Positions 5,586-61,830 of a DNA stretch of 64,000 bases are shown here, one piece after another; within the stretch, counting starts at the first letter, position 1; the number at the start of each line of letters is the position of its first letter. The position numbers and the translations under genes were made by a program. A model generated the notes under the pieces. It was not told where the DNA came from. It saw nothing but the letters and a program-made list of their open reading frames with translations, and did no database searches. The DNA is from Shigella phage Sf24. The DNA lies in the sequence record MF327008; one strand, given 5' to 3'.

Positions 5586-5795
5586 TTAAATTACATGATT
5601 ATTTATAATAAATTCTCGCGGAACGTTAAAATACCCAATTTTAGTTAATATAACAATATCGCCGTTAATAATTACCGGAGAATAATCTTCTGGAGCATTA
5701 AATTTCCAATGGGCTCTAATATTATATCCATCAGAACCAAATGCTCGAGTAGCCGGTCTCCCGGCTTTTTGCCACGCGTAGAAATCAAATTTCAT
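5586..5795 (-). CDS. hypothetical small protein (69 aa)
   Basis: Track ORF between soc and 56. Confidence 0.5.
   Translation of the reverse strand: MKFDFYAWQKAGRPATRAFGSDGYNIRAHWKFNAPEDYSPVIINGDIVILTKIGYFNVPREFIINNHVI
5600..5607 (-). promoter_or_regulatory. late promoter TATAAATA for soc
   Basis: Exact TATAAATA about 30 nt upstream of soc ATG. Confidence 0.7.
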
Positions 5796-6570: not shown

Positions 6571-7910
<1,340 letters not shown>

Positions 7911-7935: not shown

Positions 7936-7965
7936 ATAATACCATAACAAGCTGAGAAAGTAAAC
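7936..7965 (-). promoter_or_regulatory. early promoter upstream of the dam-coupled ORF
   Basis: GTTTAC-N18-TATTAT. Confidence 0.6.
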
Positions 7966-8003
7966 AAATTTATGATAAATATTAATTTAAAGGAGGACGA
8001 CGC

Positions 8004-8204
8004 ATGGTACAAAAATTAATGGCAATTGTTAATGCCATCAAAGGTAATAAAAAACGTATAGCTTTTACTATTTCTGCTATGGTAGGAATTTTACTCTGGA
8101 ACTTTATTTTATCACCTGTTGCAATTGCACATGGTATTAATATTCCAGTAGTTACTCTTGATACATTCGTAGATTTAGCATTTGCTTTAGTTGGGTTAAT
8201 TTAA
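8004..8204 (+). CDS. hypothetical small hydrophobic protein (66 aa) on the plus strand
   Basis: AAGGAGG 7 nt before ATG 8004; occupies an otherwise non-coding ~190-bp gap between gene 61 stop and the 7936-7965 promoter. Confidence 0.4.
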   Translation: MVQKLMAIVNAIKGNKKRIAFTISAMVGILLWNFILSPVAIAHGINIPVVTLDTFVDLAFALVGLI

Positions 8205-9229
8205 ATCTTAGCATATTTAGATAACCTCATTTTAGCCATCAACCCCTGGGCAATATTATTTTTCATATATTCCATAATTTGTTCAGGGGTTGCACCTTCC
8301 TTTCTAATCATATCATTAACATCTTTTGATTTCCAGGGAGATTTATCCCAAAACATAACTCTTTCTCCTGCATCAACTAATTTAGTCATTCGTTTGATAG
8401 TGTCAGGGTGACGAGGTTCATTATCTAAAACCCACACTCGTCTATCTTTAAATGGAACAACTTCTAGGTCTAATTGACCACCCGTAATAGCTATACCATT
8501 TTCAATAAAAAGTGAATCTATAGGTCCTTCTAGAACATATACATCACCATCTTTAACTCGTTCAACACCGTAAATTTTTGTTGCCTCAGGATAAGCTTTG
8601 ATGGTGATATACTTTTGTGGAGCATCTTTCTTTAATGCACGTCCTTGAAAAGACTCAGCTTTTCCGTTAGCATTATAAATTGGAATAACAAGACGAGGCT
8701 CAGAAATTTCCTTTTTGTATGTTCCCGGTGCTATGCTATTAACTAATTTAGGCCATTCGGTTGTAAACCAAAGATATTTCCATTTATCCTTTGGAATACA
8801 ACGAGCTTTTACATATTTTATAATTGGATGGTCTTCCGCCAGTTTATCTAATCTAACGCATGACGGAAGAGATTTAATTATTTTCTTCTCAGGCTGTTTA
8901 GGAAGTTCTTTAGGTTTTTCTACTGGACGACTTTTACCTTTTTCTTTTCTTATTTCAAAGATATACTCACGATATAAATCAGGTTCAAACTCCTTTAAAT
9001 ATATTCCGATTGGTGCATGATAGTTACAGTTATAACAATGAATATTTCCTTCATTATTATCACCATAATACCATCCACGGGCTTTATTTTGGTCGGTTTT
9101 TGAATCTCCACAAACAGGGCATCTAAACCGCAACTTAAAGGTTGAACTATTATTTACTTGTGTAAATTTAGGTAAATGAGCTAATGCACGGTATGCAAAC
9201 TCATTATCAATCCAAGGTATTGATGACAT
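8201..9229 (-). CDS. 61: DNA primase (gene 61)
   Basis: 342 aa; zinc ribbon CPVCGDS...HCYNCNYH; TOPRIM-like VLEGPIDSLF. Confidence 0.92.
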   Translation of the reverse strand: MSSIPWIDNEFAYRALAHLPKFTQVNNSSTFKLRFRCPVCGDSKTDQNKARGWYYGDNNEGNIHCYNCNYHAPIGIYLKEFEPDLYREYIFEIRKEKGKSRPVEKPKELPKQPEKKIIKSLPSCVRLDKLAEDHPIIKYVKARCIPKDKWKYLWFTTEWPKLVNSIAPGTYKKEISEPRLVIPIYNANGKAESFQGRALKKDAPQKYITIKAYPEATKIYGVERVKDGDVYVLEGPIDSLFIENGIAITGGQLDLEVVPFKDRRVWVLDNEPRHPDTIKRMTKLVDAGERVMFWDKSPWKSKDVNDMIRKEGATPEQIMEYMKNNIAQGLMAKMRLSKYAKI

Positions 9230-9231
9230 TT

Positions 9232-9396
9232 TTACTCTTCTTTTTCTTTAGATTCCTCTTTCTTCTTTTTAGGAATCTGTTCAGGACCTTTATTTACTAC
9301 AGCACCTGACGTTGTTCCAGTAGAGATATTTTCAGGATTACCACCTGAATCTCCAGCGACCATATCTTCTTTAATAAATTCTTTATATGTTTTCAT
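9232..9396 (-). CDS. small protein (54 aa, 61.1 position) with capsid-targeting-like N-terminus MKTYKEFIKE
   Basis: Hand-translated from ATG 9394-9396 (AGAGGT SD): MKTYKEFIKEDMVAGDSGGNPEN...KKKKEESKEKEE; stop 3 nt before gene 61 ATG. Confidence 0.5.
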   Translation of the reverse strand: MKTYKEFIKEDMVAGDSGGNPENISTGTTSGAVVNKGPEQIPKKKKEESKEKEE

Positions 9397-9397
9397 A

Positions 9398-10024
9398 TTA
9401 ACCTCTATTCATAAAAGCATTAAAAATTTGGTCATCAATAGAAACATTTACTTTAGACTGTTTTTCTGATGGTAATTCATATCCACATATCACAATTTTA
9501 TGATCAATATCAAAATACACAGAAGCAATATGATTAATGATATTTTCAGTGAAGTCTAAATCGACATCAATATCTTTTTGACCAAAGCCCAAAGGATAAA
9601 TAATGCGAGTAATTCGATTATCTTTAACAAAGATTCCACCGACATACTCTGTACTGCGTTTAAAGTCTACACGCCGACGAAATGAAAAATATTCAGGCTC
9701 TTTATGAGCTCGGCTCATAGGACACAACGAATAACTAGAATAAGAGATGTCAAATCCTACGCCTTCAATATGAGCCAAAGTGTCATGATTAAACCAATTA
9801 TAATCGTACGCCAAATCCATTAGATTATAATATGTAAAAGGCACCGGATTAACATCATTAGTCACAAGCATGTAATTAGCAACTGCTATAATTTCATTGT
9901 TTTTAACGAATACAAACCGTGATTGATGCGAATGACCTGGACCCGCGTTTTCACGATTAATGATATAACACTGGGCACCTTTATATTTGTATGTATCTTT
10001 GCACTTGTGCATTTGATAGAGCAT
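9398..10024 (-). CDS. hypothetical protein (208 aa, 61.2 position)
   Basis: Track ORF between 61 and 41. Confidence 0.6.
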   Translation of the reverse strand: MLYQMHKCKDTYKYKGAQCYIINRENAGPGHSHQSRFVFVKNNEIIAVANYMLVTNDVNPVPFTYYNLMDLAYDYNWFNHDTLAHIEGVGFDISYSSYSLCPMSRAHKEPEYFSFRRRVDFKRSTEYVGGIFVKDNRITRIIYPLGFGQKDIDVDLDFTENIINHIASVYFDIDHKIVICGYELPSEKQSKVNVSIDDQIFNAFMNRG

Positions 10025-10317
10025 TATTCACCTACCACTTCAGCGATGATATTTTTGTTATTAAAGTTTTTATCGCAATACAGAACATAATTATACTGCA
10101 TTACACCACCAGACTTAAGCTGTTTTTGCACTTCAGCTTTCATTTCAGGACGATCGCGCTCAACAATATTCATAATATCCGCTTCAATTTGAGTTTCAAC
10201 CTCAGTCTGATCAGCAGTCATAGACCATTCGCACAAATCTTTATCATAACCTGCCATAGCAGGCTGAGCAGCACAAGAAGCTAAAGCAAAAATTGTAGCA
10301 AAGATAAATTTTTTCAT
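10024..10317 (-). CDS. putative lipoprotein (97 aa, 61.3 position)
   Basis: Signal peptide with lipobox-like LASC; GAGGAG SD; own early promoter; locally GC-richer. Confidence 0.6.
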   Translation of the reverse strand: MKKFIFATIFALASCAAQPAMAGYDKDLCEWSMTADQTEVETQIEADIMNIVERDRPEMKAEVQKQLKSGGVMQYNYVLYCDKNFNNKNIIAEVVGE

Positions 10318-10346
10318 GATAATCTCCTCAGTAGTTTATGTTTATA

Positions 10347-10375
10347 TAGTATCTCAATTTCCAACAAAAGTAAAC
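10347..10375 (-). promoter_or_regulatory. early promoter upstream of 61.3-like lipoprotein
   Basis: GTTTAC-N18-TACTAT. Confidence 0.6.
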
Positions 10376-10377
10376 AG

Positions 10378-10635
10378 TTATTTTAAAACTTCTGTGTAAT
10401 CACATGTTACAAACTGTTTCTCTAGCTTGACGATTTTACGAAAGTATCTTTTACATTGACGAATCTGTCGCTTAGTAGGGCGCACAGCAAACTTAATAAA
10501 TTCCACTCGACCAAATGGAGGGCTTTCTTCTGATGGAATATCTAACACCAATTCCCACGTATCTGCAATAAGTGCTTTGAATTGAGTATTTTTCCTAACG
10601 TTATACGGAGTAGGTTTAAATAAAACAATATGCAT
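10378..10635 (-). CDS. hypothetical protein (85 aa, 61.4 position)
   Basis: Track ORF 10378-10677; start moved to ATG 10633-10635 with GAGGATAAT SD to avoid overlap with dmd. Confidence 0.5.
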   Translation of the reverse strand: MHIVLFKPTPYNVRKNTQFKALIADTWELVLDIPSEESPPFGRVEFIKFAVRPTKRQIRQCKRYFRKIVKLEKQFVTCDYTEVLK

Positions 10636-10636
10636 A

Positions 10637-10819
10637 TTATCCTCGGCAATCCACTTCACATACTTTCTTGTCATCAATGAAAGCTTTAACTAATGCTTTA
10701 TTAACTTCAGCATACTGAGTAGTAGCCCATTGAACGTCATCTTTCATCATTGTGGTTTCTTTAGTAAACATGCTTTCATTCTTAAACCACCCCATAAAAA
10801 CTACCTTTACCAATTCCAT
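10637..10819 (-). CDS. dmd: Dmd antitoxin (gene 61.5)
   Basis: 60 aa, MELVKVVFMGWFKNESMFTKE... matches T4 Dmd as recalled; early promoter and GAGGAG SD upstream. Confidence 0.88.
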   Translation of the reverse strand: MELVKVVFMGWFKNESMFTKETTMMKDDVQWATTQYAEVNKALVKAFIDDKKVCEVDCRG

Positions 10820-10848
10820 AACAATCTCCTCATTTAACCAACAAGATT

Positions 10849-10878
10849 ACTATACCATAGTCTTGTCAGCTTGTAAAC
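10849..10878 (-). promoter_or_regulatory. early promoter upstream of dmd
   Basis: GTTTAC-N18-TATAGT immediately after gene 41 stop. Confidence 0.65.
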
Positions 10879-12305
10879 TAAAATTTTAATTCATTTGCCA
10901 AAGCATCTAACTGAGCTCGAGTAGATTCATTTCTTTGATAGCGATTCTGCTCAGCCTGAATCTGTTGTGAACCTGCTACTTCGTTCACTTCAGTTGGAGT
11001 AGAATCTTGTTCAATTTCTACCCATTTCTGATTTCCTTTTTGAACACCCATCAAAAACTTATTCCATTTATTCTTATCGCCATATCGTGATTTGATTTGC
11101 TTAATGAGTTGTTGTTCAGCAGCTGCTAGCTCCTCGGTTTCAATGACCGCAAGCATAAAATCAGCTGTTGCTGGAAGACCAGCAGATTCTGCAATATCGC
11201 TCATGTTAACATCGGAAGAGTCCCAAGCTTGTTTACCAACCTGCGCTGCGGTCCAAAGAACAGTTTCGGTTTCAACAGCAAGAGCACGCAATTCCTCTGC
11301 AATAGCTTTAACAGTTGTGTAACTATTTTCTGAATAAACTCTAATGCGGCAAGATTTACAAATACCTAGATAGTCGACAATAATGATTGTTGGAACAAAA
11401 TTCTTCTTGAGCTTCAATTCATTCAAGAGAGACCTGAATGTATTAGCGTCTGCTCCACCAGTAGGATATTGCTTAACGATTAAACGACCGAGAGTAGATT
11501 TCTCACGCCATTTTTCCATTTTTCCTTTATATTCGGCGTAAGAAATATGTCCATCATCAATATCGTCAAGAGAAACATCGAGCATGTTAGCATCAATACG
11601 TTTAGCACAGACTTCTTCTGCCATTTCCATGGAGATATAAAGAACGTTATGACCAAGCTGCAAATAATCTGCTGCTAATGAGCAAAGTCCTAATGATTTA
11701 CCAACGTTAACGCCAGCCATTAAAACGTTCAGTGTTCCTGTTTCAGCTCCGCCTTTTGTAATTTTATTCAAAATACGAAGTTTAAATGGAACCTTACGAG
11801 CTTTATTCATATAAGATAGCCAGCGTGCTTCGTAGTCATCCATCCAATCATGACCAACGTAGCTATCAAATGAAATTGATAATGCTTGGCGCATGATGTC
11901 AGGAATAGCACCTACATCTGGCATTTTCTTATTTCGTTTTTCCGGAGGAAGCTCAGCATTAGTTTGAATTTCGATTATTTTAGACGTAGCATTAAACATC
12001 GCCCTTTGCTGAACATATTTTTCTGTTTCTTTTACTAACCAACTATGGTCTTCCGGAGAATCAGCTAGTTTTGAAATAAGTGTTTTTACACCAGAATATT
12101 CTGTTTCAGTAAATGAACTATTTTCTAATGCAACATTTAACGCATTAATAGATGGAACGCTATGATACTCATTAACATGAGATTTAATTAATTTGAATGT
12201 ATTTTTAGCTGGACCACTTTCAAAATATTCTGAATCCATATATGGCCAAACTTTTGAAAAATAAGCTTGATCAAATATGAGATGAGAAAGAATAATTTCT
12301 ACCAC
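10878..12305 (-). CDS. 41: replicative DNA helicase (gene 41)
   Basis: 475 aa; DnaB-like Walker A GVNVGKS. Confidence 0.95.
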   Translation of the reverse strand: MVEIILSHLIFDQAYFSKVWPYMDSEYFESGPAKNTFKLIKSHVNEYHSVPSINALNVALENSSFTETEYSGVKTLISKLADSPEDHSWLVKETEKYVQQRAMFNATSKIIEIQTNAELPPEKRNKKMPDVGAIPDIMRQALSISFDSYVGHDWMDDYEARWLSYMNKARKVPFKLRILNKITKGGAETGTLNVLMAGVNVGKSLGLCSLAADYLQLGHNVLYISMEMAEEVCAKRIDANMLDVSLDDIDDGHISYAEYKGKMEKWREKSTLGRLIVKQYPTGGADANTFRSLLNELKLKKNFVPTIIIVDYLGICKSCRIRVYSENSYTTVKAIAEELRALAVETETVLWTAAQVGKQAWDSSDVNMSDIAESAGLPATADFMLAVIETEELAAAEQQLIKQIKSRYGDKNKWNKFLMGVQKGNQKWVEIEQDSTPTEVNEVAGSQQIQAEQNRYQRNESTRAQLDALANELKF

Positions 12306-12314
12306 ACTTACTCC

Positions 12315-12653
12315 TTAAAAGAATTTAAATTTTTTCTTTGACCTTTTATTAAATGCATCTTGCAGTTGCATTGTAATACATTTTTCTACATGAGGAGCTA
12401 ACTCAGCTTTTCTTTCTTGGTCAAGAACAGCAAAGTCCATTACAACCTTTCCATCAACCCAATCCAGTTTAGTTACATACACTATATGTGTAGAACCATC
12501 TTCTAGTTTAATGACAATCTCCTGGATAACATTTTCCATAGCGGATTTAATTATCTTAAGAGACTCATTAAAAAGACGTTCTTTTCTTTCTTTTTCCCCC
12601 TCCGAAGAGGGGGATTCATCGATAATTTCTAAATCTAAATCATCTTTACTCAT
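12315..12653 (-). CDS. 40: gene 40 protein (head vertex assembly chaperone)
   Basis: Synteny between uvsX and 41; track ORF starts at GTG 12671, first in-frame ATG is 12651-12653; start ambiguous. Confidence 0.55.
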   Translation of the reverse strand: MSKDDLDLEIIDESPSSEGEKERKERLFNESLKIIKSAMENVIQEIVIKLEDGSTHIVYVTKLDWVDGKVVMDFAVLDQERKAELAPHVEKCITMQLQDAFNKRSKKKFKFF

Positions 12654-16704: not shown

Positions 16705-19401
16705 TCAGCCAAACAGGAAGTCTAACGAAGCTTTTTCTTCATAGTCCATACCAGCCGATTCACACATGCCTGCAAGCGGTTTAACAAACGATTTTTGGAA
16801 CAAAGTTGAGTAGTCAATCCAAGACAGTACGTCAGAACGAATTTCTTTTGGAAGTTCTGTACCCGACGGCCAAGCAATGCATTTGTCACCAAATGGATTT
16901 CCTTCACGCAATGGAAGAACCATTACTTTATTTCCATCCAAAATTGGAGCTACACCTAAACCGCTAACAGCTCGACGATAAGTTAGCACACCACGAATAT
17001 GGAACGGACATTTAAATCCTGGCCAACCTTTATCATCATATTTCGCTATATCGTTCGCAGTTTTTACTTCAGCAATAACTTTATAGTCAAGTTGACGATA
17101 TTCTTTCTCGAAGTTCTTGTAATATTCTTGGACAGACTCTTCACCTTCCTGAAGAATACGACGAATACTTTCTTCGAGAGCTTCTTGGACCGCTTTAGGC
17201 GTTGAACTCTGCTGAGTTTCCATACCCATGATTTTTAGATGCGGTTCAGCAAATCGCTTATCTTCCATATCATAAACGTTCAGAGCATAACGCTTTTTCG
17301 CTTTCCAAAATCCACCAACGCCCTTTGAACCAAGTGGAGGGCAAGAAATAGCTTCACGGTCCATATGCATCAGATGCTCGCGGTTATTCATATAATCACA
17401 TAACTCACGATATGCAACATCAATCATAGGTTCCATCTTTTTCTTACCAAACTGATTCATGAATTCAACTAAATCATTTTGTTCTTTAAAGCGATCAAGA
17501 CCTACTTTTTCAATAACTTTATCTACACAAACATATACCGAATCAGTATCACCTGCTGCGATGAAATCTTCACCATTAGTTCCACATACTTTATTCAGAT
17601 ATTCATTAATTTTGCGAGCAATCCACTGAATACCGACTTGACCGAAAATTGTGATAGCAGTAGCATTTCGCAAATCATAGTAGCGGAAATGAATATTACC
17701 AAGAGCACCATAAAGACTGTTAATAAGAATTTTACGGTTCAGCTGATTTGTGTTAGCAAGTGTAGCTGCTTTTTCACATTCTTCAATCAGACTATTGAGA
17801 ACAGATTCGGTGTAATTCGATAATTCATTTAAGAAATCATCACTGAACTTAACATATCGTTCAACTTCTGGTTTAGTTGAGCAAGACCCTGCACCTTTCA
17901 TAATAATCTTTTTAATAGCTTCGGCATTCATTTCTTCCGCGAACATTTTCTTTTTCCAATCTTTACGCTGGAAAAATACTTTAGCGATTTCCTTTGGAAT
18001 GATACCTTCTTGGTGCTTATCATACATCCATCCATTCGGAGAGCAAGAATATTCATCACTTGGCTTAGGAGCTGTTCCTGTGATATATTCATGAATTGGA
18101 TGAACTTTAAACTGCCCGCGAATAGTCTCAGGACTAATGTTAACCTGACGAATAATGCTAGGATACAGAGACGTCAAGTCAAAACTCATAATGTATCGAC
18201 GAGCAATCGGTTTAGGTTCAAACACAAATGCACCTGGAAAACTCTGTTTAACATGCGAACCTTGTTGAGGAATAACCTTATGTTCACCTTTAAGTGAGTT
18301 AAAAATAATAGCGTCCCAAGTTTTAATAGGACTCATTACACCAGAAAAAGGCATTTTAGCGTAATAAGACATACTTAAAACTAGATCGATAAACCCACGA
18401 ATTTTATCAATTGCTTGAACTGATTCTACGTCAATGATGTTATAACTAATGTATCGTTGATGATTAGTCTCACGAAGTTTATTAATAGGACCATCGTACG
18501 GCAATTTACCTTTTTTGGTTTCATGTTGAGCAACTGATTCCAAAGAGAACGATGGCAAATTAGTAAATGCGAATTTCTTGTACAAATCTAAATAATCAAG
18601 AATAGACACGCCATCAATAGAATAAATTTCTTTGCTACCGTACATATTTTGAATTAGTTTAGATTTTACCCGACCGATTGGAGAGAAGCGTTTCATACTA
18701 CGTTCACCGAGAACCATTTTAACGCGATTCATGATATACGGAACGTCAAATCCCTCAATATTCCAACCAGTAAAAATAGCAGGTCGTTTCTGTTCCCAGA
18801 GATTAATATATTCCATGAGCATATCGCGCTCATTATCAAATGGCATATAAATTACTCGGTCAAGAATTTCTTGAGGAACTTCATCACCACCTTCACAGTC
18901 AAGCTTAGCAGCTAACTTTGCATCCCATTTTGATACTGAACCATACATTGAATTCAAAAGGTCGAAAACATAAAAACGATCATCAATTGAATCGTAATGA
19001 GTGATAGCATCAATTTCATATTCAGCTTTCATTGGGTCAGGAAATTTATCACCAGTAACCTCAATGTCACAGTTAGCTACACGAACAAATTTTCGGTCAT
19101 AAACAATTTCTGAACCGTATGTATCACTGATATAAGCGAGTTTAAAATCGTTCATACCGAGAGCTTCGAGACCGATGTCTTCCATTCGTTTCATCCAATC
19201 TCGAGCATCTTTCATTGATGGAAATTTTTGAGGAGCGCAGTTTTTACCATAGATGTCTTTGTATTTTGACTCTTCCTTACAATGCCTAAACATAGTCGGA
19301 AGATATTCTACTTCACGAGTACGTTCCTTTCCGTTTTCATCAATATAACGTTCAACAATGTTATTTCCAACTGTTTCGATAGAGATATAAAATTCTTTCA
19401 T
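16705..19401 (-). CDS. 43: DNA polymerase (gene 43)
   Basis: 898 aa; family B pol, exo motifs and GDTDS. Confidence 0.97.
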   Translation of the reverse strand: MKEFYISIETVGNNIVERYIDENGKERTREVEYLPTMFRHCKEESKYKDIYGKNCAPQKFPSMKDARDWMKRMEDIGLEALGMNDFKLAYISDTYGSEIVYDRKFVRVANCDIEVTGDKFPDPMKAEYEIDAITHYDSIDDRFYVFDLLNSMYGSVSKWDAKLAAKLDCEGGDEVPQEILDRVIYMPFDNERDMLMEYINLWEQKRPAIFTGWNIEGFDVPYIMNRVKMVLGERSMKRFSPIGRVKSKLIQNMYGSKEIYSIDGVSILDYLDLYKKFAFTNLPSFSLESVAQHETKKGKLPYDGPINKLRETNHQRYISYNIIDVESVQAIDKIRGFIDLVLSMSYYAKMPFSGVMSPIKTWDAIIFNSLKGEHKVIPQQGSHVKQSFPGAFVFEPKPIARRYIMSFDLTSLYPSIIRQVNISPETIRGQFKVHPIHEYITGTAPKPSDEYSCSPNGWMYDKHQEGIIPKEIAKVFFQRKDWKKKMFAEEMNAEAIKKIIMKGAGSCSTKPEVERYVKFSDDFLNELSNYTESVLNSLIEECEKAATLANTNQLNRKILINSLYGALGNIHFRYYDLRNATAITIFGQVGIQWIARKINEYLNKVCGTNGEDFIAAGDTDSVYVCVDKVIEKVGLDRFKEQNDLVEFMNQFGKKKMEPMIDVAYRELCDYMNNREHLMHMDREAISCPPLGSKGVGGFWKAKKRYALNVYDMEDKRFAEPHLKIMGMETQQSSTPKAVQEALEESIRRILQEGEESVQEYYKNFEKEYRQLDYKVIAEVKTANDIAKYDDKGWPGFKCPFHIRGVLTYRRAVSGLGVAPILDGNKVMVLPLREGNPFGDKCIAWPSGTELPKEIRSDVLSWIDYSTLFQKSFVKPLAGMCESAGMDYEEKASLDFLFG

Positions 19402-19419
19402 AGATATTCCTTAGTTTAT

Positions 19420-19438
19420 AGCCCGAGTTATTAGGCTC
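19420..19438 (-). promoter_or_regulatory. gene 43 translational operator hairpin
   Basis: RNA reads GAGCC-UAAUAACUC-GGGCU just upstream of the gene 43 SD, matching the autoregulatory operator as recalled. Confidence 0.65.
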
Positions 19439-19462
19439 TTGATATATTATACTCCAAATAAG

Positions 19463-19480
19463 GGGCCGAAGCCCCTTTGC
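19463..19480 (-). terminator. C(UUCG)G stable hairpin upstream of gene 43 (no clear U-run)
   Basis: RNA AGGGGC-UUCG-GCCCCU. Confidence 0.5.
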
Positions 19481-19481
19481 T

Positions 19482-19718
19482 TTAAATTTCTACTGTACAA
19501 CGCGATATAACGGACTTGCCATCTTTATTTGTGGTTTTGATAATCGCATGAAATGCGCGTTGGCGTGGGTAAACTAATCGTTGGAATTCTTTTTGGAATT
19601 CTATTTGTTTATCTTCCGGGAGGTCAAAAACCAGTTGGGTAGAAGACAGACCATATGTTTGTTTTAGATTTTCGAATATTAGAAAAGCTTCGGTAAACTG
19701 AATCTCTGATTGTGTCAT
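19482..19718 (-). CDS. hypothetical small protein (78 aa) between regA and 43
   Basis: Track ORF trimmed to in-frame ATG 19716-19718 downstream of regA stop. Confidence 0.4.
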   Translation of the reverse strand: MTQSEIQFTEAFLIFENLKQTYGLSSTQLVFDLPEDKQIEFQKEFQRLVYPRQRAFHAIIKTTNKDGKSVISRCTVEI

Positions 19719-19728
19719 ATAATTTACC

Positions 19729-20097
19729 TTAATTACCAATCGTATATTTAGGAACGAGTTTCCATTCATGTTTTTGTTTAAAAGAAATAACTCGGAAGTT
19801 ATTAGTTAAATCTTTCATAAAAGTTCTTTGACCAGGAACGATTTCAATCAGTCCCCAATCTTCTAACAGCCATGCAATCGAATCACGACGAACTTCATCT
19901 TCTTCTGTCATTTCAACTTGACGGCCATCCATACGAAGCATTTCTTTAAAATGAACGATATAGTATAGTCCTTTTTTCTGAAGAATATGACAGGACTGAT
20001 ACAGAACTTTATCTTTATTATTAGCAATTCCCATACGAGTCAAAGTTTCTTTTACTTTCAGAAAATCTTCAGGTTTTTTAAGAGTAATTTCAATCAT
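19729..20097 (-). CDS. regA: translational repressor RegA
   Basis: 122 aa; matches T4 RegA as recalled; last gene of 45-44-62-regA. Confidence 0.92.
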   Translation of the reverse strand: MIEITLKKPEDFLKVKETLTRMGIANNKDKVLYQSCHILQKKGLYYIVHFKEMLRMDGRQVEMTEEDEVRRDSIAWLLEDWGLIEIVPGQRTFMKDLTNNFRVISFKQKHEWKLVPKYTIGN

Positions 20098-20098
20098 T

Positions 20099-20662
20099 TT
20101 ACCATTCCAATGCTAGTTTTTTGAGTTGTTTCTGTTCTTTTACGTTCTTAGTCACTTCTTTCAAAAAATCATCCGTGACTAATCCTTTAAGTTCTTTTAA
20201 TACTAAAGGTAGTTTTCCATTTTTAGTAAGAATTGATTTATAGTTAATTGCATCATTTGTATTAACTTGATACCGCTTAGCAAGTAACTTAATAATCAAT
20301 ACTTCGGTGGAATCTTCGACCAGTTTTGCCCATTTACCATATCTTTTACCCCGAGGAACTGCAGCCATCAGATAATTAAAATGAGCTTCATCACTTAAGC
20401 CTGATCCAATTAAATTCATAGCATATACAGCTGGCATGCACTCTGGAAATTGTGATAATGCATTTTCAACCATGAATTTTGAATAATCTTTTTGAGCAAT
20501 AGAGCATTTAGTTTTATTATTAATAGCTCCAATTATTTCAAAAAATTCATTTTCAGCTTTTTCTTTAAAAGAATCAGCAGCAGATTGGACAGCTGTCCAA
20601 TCTTTTGAATACCAAGCAACTTGATGCTCGTTTAATTGAATATCATCTTCAAATAAGCTCAT
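20099..20662 (-). CDS. 62: clamp loader subunit (gene 62)
   Basis: 187 aa from ATG 20660-20662, 1 nt after gene 44 stop. Confidence 0.9.
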
Positions 20663-20663
20663 A

Positions 20664-21623
20664 TCACTTCCACTGCATTTCACATGCTAATTGAATGAAA
20701 AGATAAGCTAAATGTAATTCAGTGTTAGCTGCAATACCATGATACTGATTATTTTCACCAACAATTTCGTACATACGAATAATACTTTGCGGAGTTACAC
20801 GTGAATAGATTTCTTCGGCAAGTTTACCCACGAACCACGAATAATCAGCTGCATATTTTGGTGCTAAAGCTCTGAGTTGTTTAACATCTTTATTTTTGAG
20901 AGACTCAAGAACATCATCAATAGCACCACGATCGTTAGTAACCAGTGATAAAATACCAGCATCCAAAACACCTTTAGATGAATAACTATCGAGCTCACCA
21001 ATAGTTTTACGAAAATCAGGAAAATTCTTTTTAACCAAAGCTGCTACAACTTTCATATCAGCTATAGCAATTCCTTCATGCTTGCAGATTTCAGTCAATC
21101 GACGAATCATCTGCTTCATCATTTCAATTTTATCTTCATCGGTCGGTTGACCGAATGTAATAACTCGGCAGCGTGACTGGAGAGGTTTAATAATACCATC
21201 AATATTGTTAGCAGTAATAATAATACTACAGTTTGAACTATAAGCTTCCATAAAGGAACGAAGATGTCGCTGAGACTCTGCTAACCCTGAGCGGTCAAAT
21301 TCATCAATAACGATTACTTTTTGACGACCATCAAATGAAGCGGCGCTGGCAAAATTAGTCAAAGGACCACGAACGAAATCAATTTTACAATCTGACCCAT
21401 TCACAAACATCATATCAGCATTTACATCATGACACAATGCTTTCGCTACAGTTGTTTTACCTGTTCCTGGAGAAGGAGAATGAAGAATAATATGTGGAAT
21501 CTTACCTTTACTTGTAATAGATTTAAAGGTTTCTTTATCAAAGGCGGGAAGAATACATTCATCGATAGTAGATGGACGATATTTCTGTTCAAGAATGTGT
21601 TCTTTTTCATTTACGGTAATCAT
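20664..21623 (-). CDS. 44: clamp loader ATPase (gene 44)
   Basis: 319 aa from MITVNEKEH (ATG 21621-23, TGAGGAAA SD); Walker A GTGKTT. Confidence 0.93.
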
Positions 21624-21657
21624 AATTTCCTCATTCAAGTTTTAGTGTAAATTATAA

Positions 21658-21671
21658 AGGGCCGAAGCCCT
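21658..21671 (-). terminator. C(UUCG)G hairpin between 45 and 44
   Basis: RNA GGGC-UUCG-GCCC. Confidence 0.45.
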
Positions 21672-21674
21672 CTA

Positions 21675-22361
21675 TTAAAAATCGTGGGTAGAATCAGCTT
21701 CAAGAGCTACTACATAATTCGCATGTTCACCTTCAAATTTAGCAGCGCCTTGTTTACCTTTTGCCCAAAGCAGAAGTTTATAATTTCCTGGTTGCATTTT
21801 CATATTTGCCATATTGATAATGAAATTAAATGTATTTTCACCATCATAATCACCAAGAGTCAAAGAATATTTAACACGGGTAAGAGCAGAATCTTCTACT
21901 TTATTAAAACCGTTAATTACGATTTTACCTTCTTTTACCGTGATAGCAATTGTATCAATTTGCAGACCACGAGATACACGCAACAGCTGTTGAAGGTCTT
22001 CAGCTTTAATTTCAGTAACAACAGATGCTACCGGGAATGGAATTGGTTTATTAGGAGCAACTACTGTACTCGGATCGGCTGCTGGCCAAAAAATTGTTGA
22101 ACGAGCATCAGCAATTTTAATATTTCCATCTTCTGACTGGGAAATTTCTGCATCATCATTAACTAGAGACAGAATACCGAGAAAACCGTTCAAATCGTAA
22201 ATTGCTACATCAAAATCAATAACGTCAGAAATATTTGCTTCCGCATAAGTTGTACCATTAACTGCGCGAGTCATAATAAATTGACCGGATTTAAGCATAA
22301 TACCGGAGTTAATAGTAGCGAAATTTTTAAGCAGAGCAGTAGTATCTTTAGACAGTTTCAT
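21675..22361 (-). CDS. 45: sliding clamp (gene 45)
   Basis: 228 aa; matches T4 gp45 as recalled. Confidence 0.95.
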   Translation of the reverse strand: MKLSKDTTALLKNFATINSGIMLKSGQFIMTRAVNGTTYAEANISDVIDFDVAIYDLNGFLGILSLVNDDAEISQSEDGNIKIADARSTIFWPAADPSTVVAPNKPIPFPVASVVTEIKAEDLQQLLRVSRGLQIDTIAITVKEGKIVINGFNKVEDSALTRVKYSLTLGDYDGENTFNFIINMANMKMQPGNYKLLLWAKGKQGAAKFEGEHANYVVALEADSTHDF

Positions 22362-53191: not shown

Positions 53192-53665
53192 TTATTTGAA
53201 TGATTTGACGTACTGAATAGAGCCTTTGCTATTCACGAAAGCGATTTTACCATTTTTGTTATACATGGTAGCAGTACGCTGATAGCCATAAGTTTGCTTA
53301 CCAGATTGATAACCAACTAATGCAAAATTATCTTCACCCATTTTATTCTGTTTGGCGCGGATACGTTCATGACCGTGCGCCATAAGAACCTTAGCATCGC
53401 CAGTTGAAATTGATCTACGAGTTTTTTCATCTTCAACTGTATTAACAAAGTCGTCAAATGAATCAAATTTAGCGTGAGATTTATTATACAGTTTTCCATC
53501 TACTGCATAATTATATCCCTGTACATCCATCTCAACTTCTGTACCATCATCCAATACAGCAGTGATTTTTTGACCTTTTTTAAATTTCAAAAGATCAGTA
53601 AAAGATTCAGCAATAATTTGAGAATTAATAGCTGCTTCAGTGATAAATTCTTGATATGTTTTCAT
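53192..53665 (-). CDS. internal (injected) head protein with capsid targeting sequence
   Basis: N-terminus MKTYQEFITEA matches the CTS of T4 internal proteins as recalled. Confidence 0.75.
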   Translation of the reverse strand: MKTYQEFITEAAINSQIIAESFTDLLKFKKGQKITAVLDDGTEVEMDVQGYNYAVDGKLYNKSHAKFDSFDDFVNTVEDEKTRRSISTGDAKVLMAHGHERIRAKQNKMGEDNFALVGYQSGKQTYGYQRTATMYNKNGKIAFVNSKGSIQYVKSFK

Positions 53666-61572: not shown

Positions 61573-61830
61573 TTATTTTAAATCTTCTAATCGTTTCTTC
61601 ATCTTAGAACCATTTTTAGCGATTTCTCCTGCGTCAGAGCATAATGCTAAAAGTGCTTTAACTTTAGTTTGGTCTCCTTTAAAAGACGAAGGATCGACTG
61701 CAGCAGCAAGTTCTTTAATACGAGAGAAAAGACGCTCAGCTTCGGCTAAAGCCATTCCAAGCTTTACTTCCATACCATGAGAAGATTCAGTGATAATAGT
61801 TTCTGTAGCAAACTCTTTATAAGTTTTCAT
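61573..61830 (-). CDS. internal (injected) protein at the ipI locus with capsid targeting sequence
   Basis: 85 aa, N-terminus MKTYKEFATE (CTS-like); position between tRNA cluster and 57B; early promoter upstream. Confidence 0.7.
   Translation of the reverse strand: MKTYKEFATETIITESSHGMEVKLGMALAEAERLFSRIKELAAAVDPSSFKGDQTKVKALLALCSDAGEIAKNGSKMKKRLEDLK

Follow-up and report, generated by a model that had tools for sequence, protein, structure and literature searches.

Several small genes that lie between the helicase gene 41 and the primase gene 61 of phage T4 form a region named the 'anti-TA island' (TA, toxin-antitoxin) (Srikant, Guegler & Laub, eLife 2022, PMC9391042). When T4 was evolved on toxIN cells, the two-gene operon dmd-61.4 was amplified, and 61.4 was renamed tifA as the gene for a protein inhibitor of ToxN; deletion of the tifA start codon abolishes the function (PMC9391042). 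TifA binds ToxN and RNA via a basic C-terminal helix (Pro53-Thr54 cap, followed by K55, R56, and R59) and so holds ToxN in a ribonucleoprotein complex; its potency depends on residue 41, F41 being weak and F41S or F41H strong (Guegler, NAR 2023, PMC10853763). AdfA, the anti-DarT factor encoded by gene 61.2, requires His at the position of RB69 residue 164 to bind DarT1; the RB69 substitution R164H gives DarT1 neutralisation, and the homologs of the T4 group mostly carry His (PMC11257639). Spackle, the product of sp (61.3), loses a 22-residue signal peptide on export to become a 75-residue soluble periplasmic protein, which has a disulfide between Cys29 and Cys81 and inhibits the gp5 tail lysozyme 1:1 (PMC7650644, PMC7677548). 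In this study, we analyzed the corresponding locus in a 64,000-nucleotide stretch of the DNA of Shigella phage Sf24 (sequence record MF327008; hereafter the window, positions being those of the whole stretch). Gene identities, gene order, near-identity to T4, diagnostic residues, and the promoter pattern were computed here, and all biochemical activities are inferred from the published experiments on T4 and RB69.

Gene content and order between genes 41 and 61

A megablast search with positions 9200-10900 as the query matched 538 phage records, nearly all of them Tequatrovirus, with Shigella phage Sf25 at the top (99.9%), and by this sequence comparison the window is assigned to Tequatrovirus. 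On the minus strand of 8201-12305, seven ORFs are collinear with T4 genes 41, dmd, 61.4, sp, 61.2, 61.1, and 61, and an identical order is annotated over 17935-22039 of the T4 reference (NC_000866). The DNA identity to T4 was 95.3-98.9% per gene and the protein identity across the island was 96-100%, with no amino acid change in gp41, one in Dmd, three in gp61.4, one in Spackle, five in gp61.2, and two each in gp61.1 and gp61. The PHROGs assignments agreed with the Pfam identities of the island genes. Because the T4 order and near-identity hold gene by gene, the Dmd ORF and its small neighbors are real, well beyond chance, and the locus, as a gene-for-gene member of the published T4 anti-TA island, is already known. 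On this basis, the gene-to-function map in Table 1, a T4-type accessory island laid out as two early operons, is very probably correct.

A preliminary description of the window had singled out 10378-10819 as a cluster centered on dmd, which is exactly dmd plus the 85-aa ORF 61.4, and had placed small ORFs of the 61.1 to 61.4 positions at 9232-10635, where the orthologs of T4 61.1, 61.2, sp, and 61.4 indeed lie. Its expectation that the interval holds further antidefense factors was sound and had already been published in 2022 for the anti-TA island (PMC9391042). The assignment of functions to the individual ORFs changed, as described below.

Dmd, TifA, AdfA, and Spackle

The 60-aa ORF had been matched to Dmd, and our searches agree; it hit Pfam PF17587 (E 1.8e-45; cut-off 27 bits, score in Table 1) and the PDB chain 5hy3_B, 'Antitoxin Dmd' of the RnlA-Dmd complex (E 9.6e-37), and it is identical to T4 Dmd at 59 of 60 residues, the sole change being I22T. 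By analogy with T4, this Dmd would bind and block the RNase toxins RnlA and LsoA, which would be set free as the labile antitoxins decay after host shut-off.

The 85-aa ORF matched Pfam DUF7279 (PF23945; E 2.4e-20, cut-off 24.5 bits). The alignment proposed in the preliminary description gave 82/85 identical residues to T4 gp61.4 (A35S, A81T, and I83V), and the Pro-Thr cap P53-T54 and the basic residues K55, R56, and R59 are invariant in the TifA proteins of the window, T4, and RB69. The ORF is thus identified by its sequence as TifA, a predicted RNA-binding inhibitor of the type III toxin ToxN. At residue 41 it has the Phe of wild-type T4, and the stronger Ser/His allele is absent; because of F41, TifA here should act like the weak T4 allele. 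ToxN trapped by TifA would leave phage mRNAs uncut at GAAAU. Both GAAAU sites, the ToxN motif, of T4 dmd and tifA are absent in the window through Dmd I22T and TifA I83V, but this loss is statistically unremarkable, as about one site is expected in 441 nt by a rough estimate from base composition. A 99-aa TTG-initiated ORF (10378-10677) was considered and rejected; it is the tifA frame extended into dmd, and the T4 annotation starts at the ATG at 10635.

The 208-aa ORF, as the counterpart of T4 gene 61.2, had been proposed as a candidate ToxIN inhibitor. Instead, it matched Pfam AdfA, 'Anti-DarT factor A' (PF23813), over residues 1-208 with an E-value of 5e-137, and it showed no homology to TifA or any other known ToxN inhibitor, matching AdfA only in Pfam and PHROGs. 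The published work likewise gives the ToxN inhibitor as 61.4/TifA and 61.2 as AdfA (PMC9391042, PMC11257639). The protein is identical to T4 gp61.2 at 203 of 208 residues and 100% identical to that of Sf25; the changes from T4 are L62P, D66Y, N82T, V84A, and P190S, four of which (P62, Y66, T82, and A84) match RB69 and the family consensus. His165 aligns with R164 of RB69. The 208-aa ORF is therefore assigned to AdfA, which would bind the DNA ADP-ribosyltransferase toxin DarT1, the window allele having the binding-permissive His. Neither the 208-aa nor the 85-aa protein had a PDB match.

Escherichia phage FriedrichZschokke/Bas41 carries an extra 118-aa ORF (phrog_4122) between 61.1 and 61.2, at 699-1055 of the compared stretch. 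This ORF, a stand-alone paralog of AdfA's C-terminal half, matches positions 113-211 of Pfam AdfA with E 8.8e-8 and ends in the same SIDDQIFNAFMNRG as AdfA; many relatives have it, and the window does not. This paralog suggests that AdfA is modular, with a His165 half able to stand alone.

The 97-aa ORF matched Pfam T4_Spackle (PF25676; E 1.3e-44) and the PDB entries 6x6o_A (E 8e-62) and 7cn6 (mature residues 23-97). It is identical to T4 Spackle at 96 of 97 residues (K53E), with residues 1-22 (the signal peptide), C29, and C81 as in T4. Once exported, it would inhibit the gp5 lysozyme of superinfecting phages, which is superinfection exclusion. This ORF had been described as a GC-richer lipoprotein gene. 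Residues 12-15 do read LASC, which is lipobox-like, but they lie within a signal peptide identical to that of T4 Spackle, for which N-terminal sequencing placed the cleavage after residue 22, giving a mature start at Gly23 and a protein soluble in the periplasm (PMC7650644). Although the GC content of sp (0.361) is the highest among the five small genes, it departs from the window mean (0.344, SD 0.037) by no more than 0.5 SD and is reached or exceeded by 33% of equal-sized windows, so that the excess is not significant.

Promoters were searched for with the T4-early-promoter pattern GTTTAC-N16-19-TANNNT, which had 27 matches over the whole window against 3.3 expected (0/100 shuffles reached 27) and which replaced a generic sigma-70 scan that was uninformative overall (20 sites versus 20 expected). 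Within the cluster, only two sites matched, one before dmd and one before sp. The remaining junctions are tight: 1 nt between dmd and tifA, a TAATG overlap between sp and adfA, 1 nt between adfA and 61.1, and 2 nt between 61.1 and 61; the Shine-Dalgarno sequence of tifA, GAGGA, sits inside the 3' end of dmd, to which tifA would be translationally coupled. No MotA-box pattern and no late-promoter pattern (TATAAATA) was found in 8000-12500, the closest of the latter being at 5600. Because there are only two promoter patterns and no room at the other junctions, the genes form two operons, dmd-tifA and sp-adfA-61.1-61, with inclusion of the primase gene probable. The preliminary description had given several genes an early promoter of their own, whereas the pattern, and the space for it, stands before only two of the five. 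In T4, the tifA promoter was put upstream of dmd, and another promoter was mentioned downstream of tifA (Srikant 2022, PMC9391042).

The combination put forward in that description, with 61.2 as the ToxIN inhibitor, individually promoted genes, and the 97-aa ORF as an acquired, GC-richer lipoprotein gene, can point to the LASC motif, to the top GC content of sp, and to the two early promoter patterns, but it is highly improbable given the AdfA match, the published division of ToxN to TifA and DarT to AdfA, the two promoters for five genes, the ordinary GC content of sp, and the soluble mature Spackle.

Several points weigh against a straightforward transfer of the T4 functions. The substitutions depart from the tested T4 versions, and specificity could differ as a result of Dmd I22T, Spackle K53E, the five changes in AdfA, or, in TifA, A35S in the variable loop near the interface residue 41, along with A81T and I83V. 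Both promoters are predictions from pattern matches alone. A single-copy T4-type TifA (F41) fails to overcome plasmid-borne toxIN (PMC9391042, PMC10853763), and deletion of adfA from T4 was without phenotype against DarTG1 (PMC11257639). In view of these two results, the presence of an inhibitor does not imply that the phage is resistant.

Table 1. Features of the 41-to-61 interval in the window, and its content in related phages
Feature	Position	Strand	Description
Gene 41, replicative helicase, conserved upstream flank	10878-12305	-	475 aa; 100% identical to T4 gp41
Putative early promoter of dmd-tifA, GTTTACA...TGGTATAGT	10849-10878	-	T4-early pattern; top sigma-70-like site in 8000-12500 (10/12 with TG)
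dmd (61.5)	10637-10819	-	60 aa; Pfam Dmd, 153.5 bits
tifA (61.4)	10378-10635	-	85 aa; Pfam DUF7279, 72.6 bits
Putative early promoter of sp-adfA-61.1(-61), GTTTACT-17-TACTAT	10346-10375	-	T4-early pattern; inside the 60-nt tifA-sp spacer
sp (61.3), Spackle	10024-10317	-	97 aa; Pfam T4_Spackle, 151.1 bits
adfA (61.2)	9398-10024	-	208 aa; Pfam AdfA, 454.5 bits
61.1	9232-9396	-	54 aa; 52/54 identical to T4 gp61.1
Gene 61, primase, conserved downstream flank	8201-9229	-	342 aa; 340/342 identical to T4 gp61
Bas41-type phages	between 41 and 61		extra 118-aa ORF, AdfA C-terminal half
Klebsiella Phi_KR1, Pectobacterium PM2, Acinetobacter Lazarus	between 41 and 61		other ORF sets
Aeromonas phage 31.2	between 41 and 61		only 41, 61.1, and 61

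Gene 61.1 and its resemblance to gp23

The features of gene 61.1 may be the sole new item of the locus. Neither 61.1 nor its homologs had a match in Pfam or NCBIfam, even at E-values up to 10. The first 10 residues, MKTYKEFIKE, share 8/10 with the capsid targeting sequence found in internal proteins IPII and IPIII, including Y4, F7, I8, and E10; IPII and IPIII start with MKTYQEFIAE/A and IPI with MKTFKEF...ITE/A (the slash marks the processing position). Mutagenesis of the capsid targeting sequence showed residues 4 and 7 to be critical for targeting and residues 8 and 10 for processing (PMC9026906). As a background, we took the 625 Met-initiated 10-mers with which six-frame ORFs of the window begin, counting ORFs of 40 aa or longer. 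Their identity to the targeting sequence was at most 4/10, with three exceptions at 7, 8, and 9; the 8/10 scorer is 61.1, and the other two are the ORFs at 61573-61830 and 53192-53665. In its DNA, 61.1 agrees with ipII/ipIII at 26 of its first 30 nt. Residues 8-10 form an IxE site of the type cut by the prohead protease gp21, which ends the targeting sequence.

The rest of the protein resembles the major capsid protein gp23. Residues 2-38 aligned with gp23 57-93 (16/37 identical, E 3e-8 by BLASTP), residues 11-38 being the homolog of gp23 residues 66-93, the N-fist. An HMM built from 26 family members and run against 1500 six-frame ORFs found gp23 with an E-value of 4.9e-10 (runner-up 1.5); against all 177,635 distinct PDB sequences, the family profile retrieved gp23 chains only, and tblastn with 61.1 also retrieved gene 23 of Acinetobacter phage 133. 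The alignment sets I8-K9-E10/D11 of 61.1 on L63-T64-E65/A66 of gp23, where E65/A66 is what we take to be the gp21 maturation cleavage site of gp23. The invariant core of 61.1 thereby falls on the opening ~28 residues of mature gp23*. The 25 residues at the start of gp23* make up the N-fist, which touches four subunits; the N-fist is disordered inside the prohead, relocates at expansion, and is ascribed to gp23 only, not to gp24 (PMC9958956). The tail of 61.1 is Lys/Glu-rich, and the predicted mature 44-mer has a net charge of -2 despite a KKKK run, whereas the tails of many homologs are strongly basic.

Phages of Klebsiella, Acinetobacter, Aeromonas, Cronobacter, and Pectobacterium are among the 1395 phage records with a 61.1 family member, as against 485 records for AdfA. 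In 11/11 genomes examined, the gene either adjoins the primase gene on its upstream side or is set off from it by one ORF. Short forms belong to phrog_1823 and long forms to phrog_2086. The long forms (150-170 aa) consist of a helical N-domain of ~110 residues followed by the conserved core LxE/(D/E)MVAGD. An AlphaFold2 model of one long-form homolog showed the helical N-domain at moderate confidence and a disordered gp23-like module; Foldseek with this model found nothing in the PDB (best E 7) and only uncharacterized phage proteins in BFVD. Automatic annotation names some 61.1 homologs 'major capsid domain-containing protein', and we found no paper linking 61.1 with heads, the capsid targeting sequence, or gp23, an earlier mention being possible.

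In RB69, 61.1 (818-1096 of the compared stretch) corresponds to the C-terminal part of the long form, and the adjoining upstream ORF032c (1093-1284) corresponds to its N-terminal part by a Foldseek match of E 0.019 with 40% identity across 60 columns. As the two ORFs match its two parts, the long-form gene of RB69 appears to be split or frameshifted.

We tentatively favor the reading that gp61.1 is a prohead-targeted polypeptide from which gp21 cuts an N-fist-like peptide, a possibility suggested by the combined resemblances at its N-terminus and core. The protein would enter the scaffolding core by its internal-protein-type targeting sequence, the long forms doing so by the ~110-residue propeptide, and gp21 would cut after the invariant Glu homologous to gp23 Glu65. 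Cleavage would free an N-fist copy like that of gp23, bearing a charged tail, which could fill N-fist sites wanting at the gp24 vertices or at the portal vertex; alternatively, the freed peptide could be injected like an internal protein. If this reading is true, 61.1 would be an unexpected extra component, conserved, protease-processed, and resembling the N-fist, in the well-studied T4 head assembly. Two observations weigh against this reading, namely the expression of 61.1 from an early operon without a late promoter nearby and the net charge of -2 of the predicted mature 44-mer. The two internal-protein genes of the window likewise have early-type promoter patterns.

Those two genes were recorded in their own right. 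The ORF at 53192-53665 (minus strand, 157 aa) starts with MKTYQEFITE/AA and is assigned to DUF7412 and to the PHROG 'internal virion protein'; the ORF at 61573-61830 (minus strand, 85 aa) starts with MKTYKEFATE/T and is assigned to the PHROG 'internal head protein'. They stand at the ipII/ipIII and ipI loci and differ from T4 IPI-III; the set of internal proteins injected by this phage is therefore not that of T4.

A role of gp61.1 tied to the helicase or primase, or mere translational coupling into gene 61 with the gp23 and targeting resemblance as a relic of an old recombination, would account for the invariable position by the primase gene (11/11 genomes), the 2-nt gap to the start of gene 61, and the lack of a late promoter nearby. 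However, what is conserved in 61.1 coincides exactly with the gp23-like core, where 11 residues are invariant and six near-invariant across subfamilies, and, the Lys-rich tail aside, nothing in the sequence points to DNA or primase binding. Conservation confined to that core indicates selection on the gp23-like peptide rather than on coupling, and we regard this explanation as unlikely.

It is also conceivable, and in our judgment quite improbable, that gp61.1 is a fifth antidefense factor, an early mimic of the gp23 N-terminus acting as a decoy or blocker of gp23 sensors such as Lit/Gol or CmdTAC. The gene does lie within the island and in an early operon, residues 11-38 are homologous to gp23 66-93, Lit and CmdTAC are triggered by gp23, and the remaining genes of the region have been named as antitoxin candidates (Srikant 2022, PMC9391042). 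On the other hand, 61.1 is far commoner than the antitoxin genes, as the record counts above show for AdfA, and a mimic of the trigger should switch a sensor on, not off. Moreover, 61.1 is kept beside the primase gene even where the island is empty, in Aeromonas phage 31.2, and it is thus part of the conserved flank and not of the variable cargo.

Neighboring loci and comparison with known systems

Two ORFs lie between gene 61 and dam (6571-7350, minus strand). A 186-aa ORF (7350-7910, minus strand; phrog_8706) occupies what in T4 is a gap of ~310 bp separating these two genes; its stop codon overlaps the start of dam, and it has an early-type promoter pattern of its own at 7936-7965. In view of weak, subthreshold Pfam matches to the nucleases DpnII, BanI, and HSDR_N (E ~0.01) and of a D..(12)..EIK motif, it may be a PD-(D/E)XK nuclease coupled to the Dam methylase of the phage. 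Between this ORF and gene 61 lies a hydrophobic 66-aa ORF (8004-8204, plus strand), annotated in Sf25 as a predicted membrane protein and without a family match.

Little in the island itself is new, and the main product of the analysis is the corrected gene-to-function map, in which TifA is the 85-aa ORF (weak F41), AdfA is the 208-aa ORF (His allele), and Spackle is the 97-aa ORF. From this map follow predictions of the toxin-antitoxin systems that the phage can or cannot evade.

The window agrees with the T4 anti-TA island in its genes, their order and strand, the operon layout, and the promoter positions; it differs by a handful of substitutions, its AdfA being nearer to the family consensus than that of T4. 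The island of RB69 (Mosigvirus) keeps the same order of dmd-tifA, sp, adfA, and 61.1 between 41 and 61, but it adds imm, imm.1, and four ORFs. In addition, RB69 TifA is shorter by 15 residues at the C-terminus and carries the stronger His41 allele. RB69 AdfA carries the non-neutralizing Arg164 allele, and ORF032c stands ahead of RB69 61.1, a 92-aa form. The cargo from 41 to 61.1 thus differs among relatives (Table 1), which supports the view that the interval is a hot spot for accessory genes.

With the T4 internal proteins IPI, IPII, and IPIII, 61.1 shares the targeting sequence and its critical residues, a signature that the two annotated internal-protein genes of the window also carry. Unlike them, it lies off the internal-protein loci, is far smaller, and has a predicted mature part that is not basic overall and is like gp23 and not like any internal protein; its packaging is only predicted. 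The island as a whole resembles anti-CRISPR and antirestriction islands in that small early counterdefense genes are clustered at a fixed hot spot between conserved genes. By contrast with those islands, the targets here would be toxin-antitoxin systems, namely RnlAB/LsoAB, ToxIN, and DarTG, and a superinfection-exclusion gene is included.

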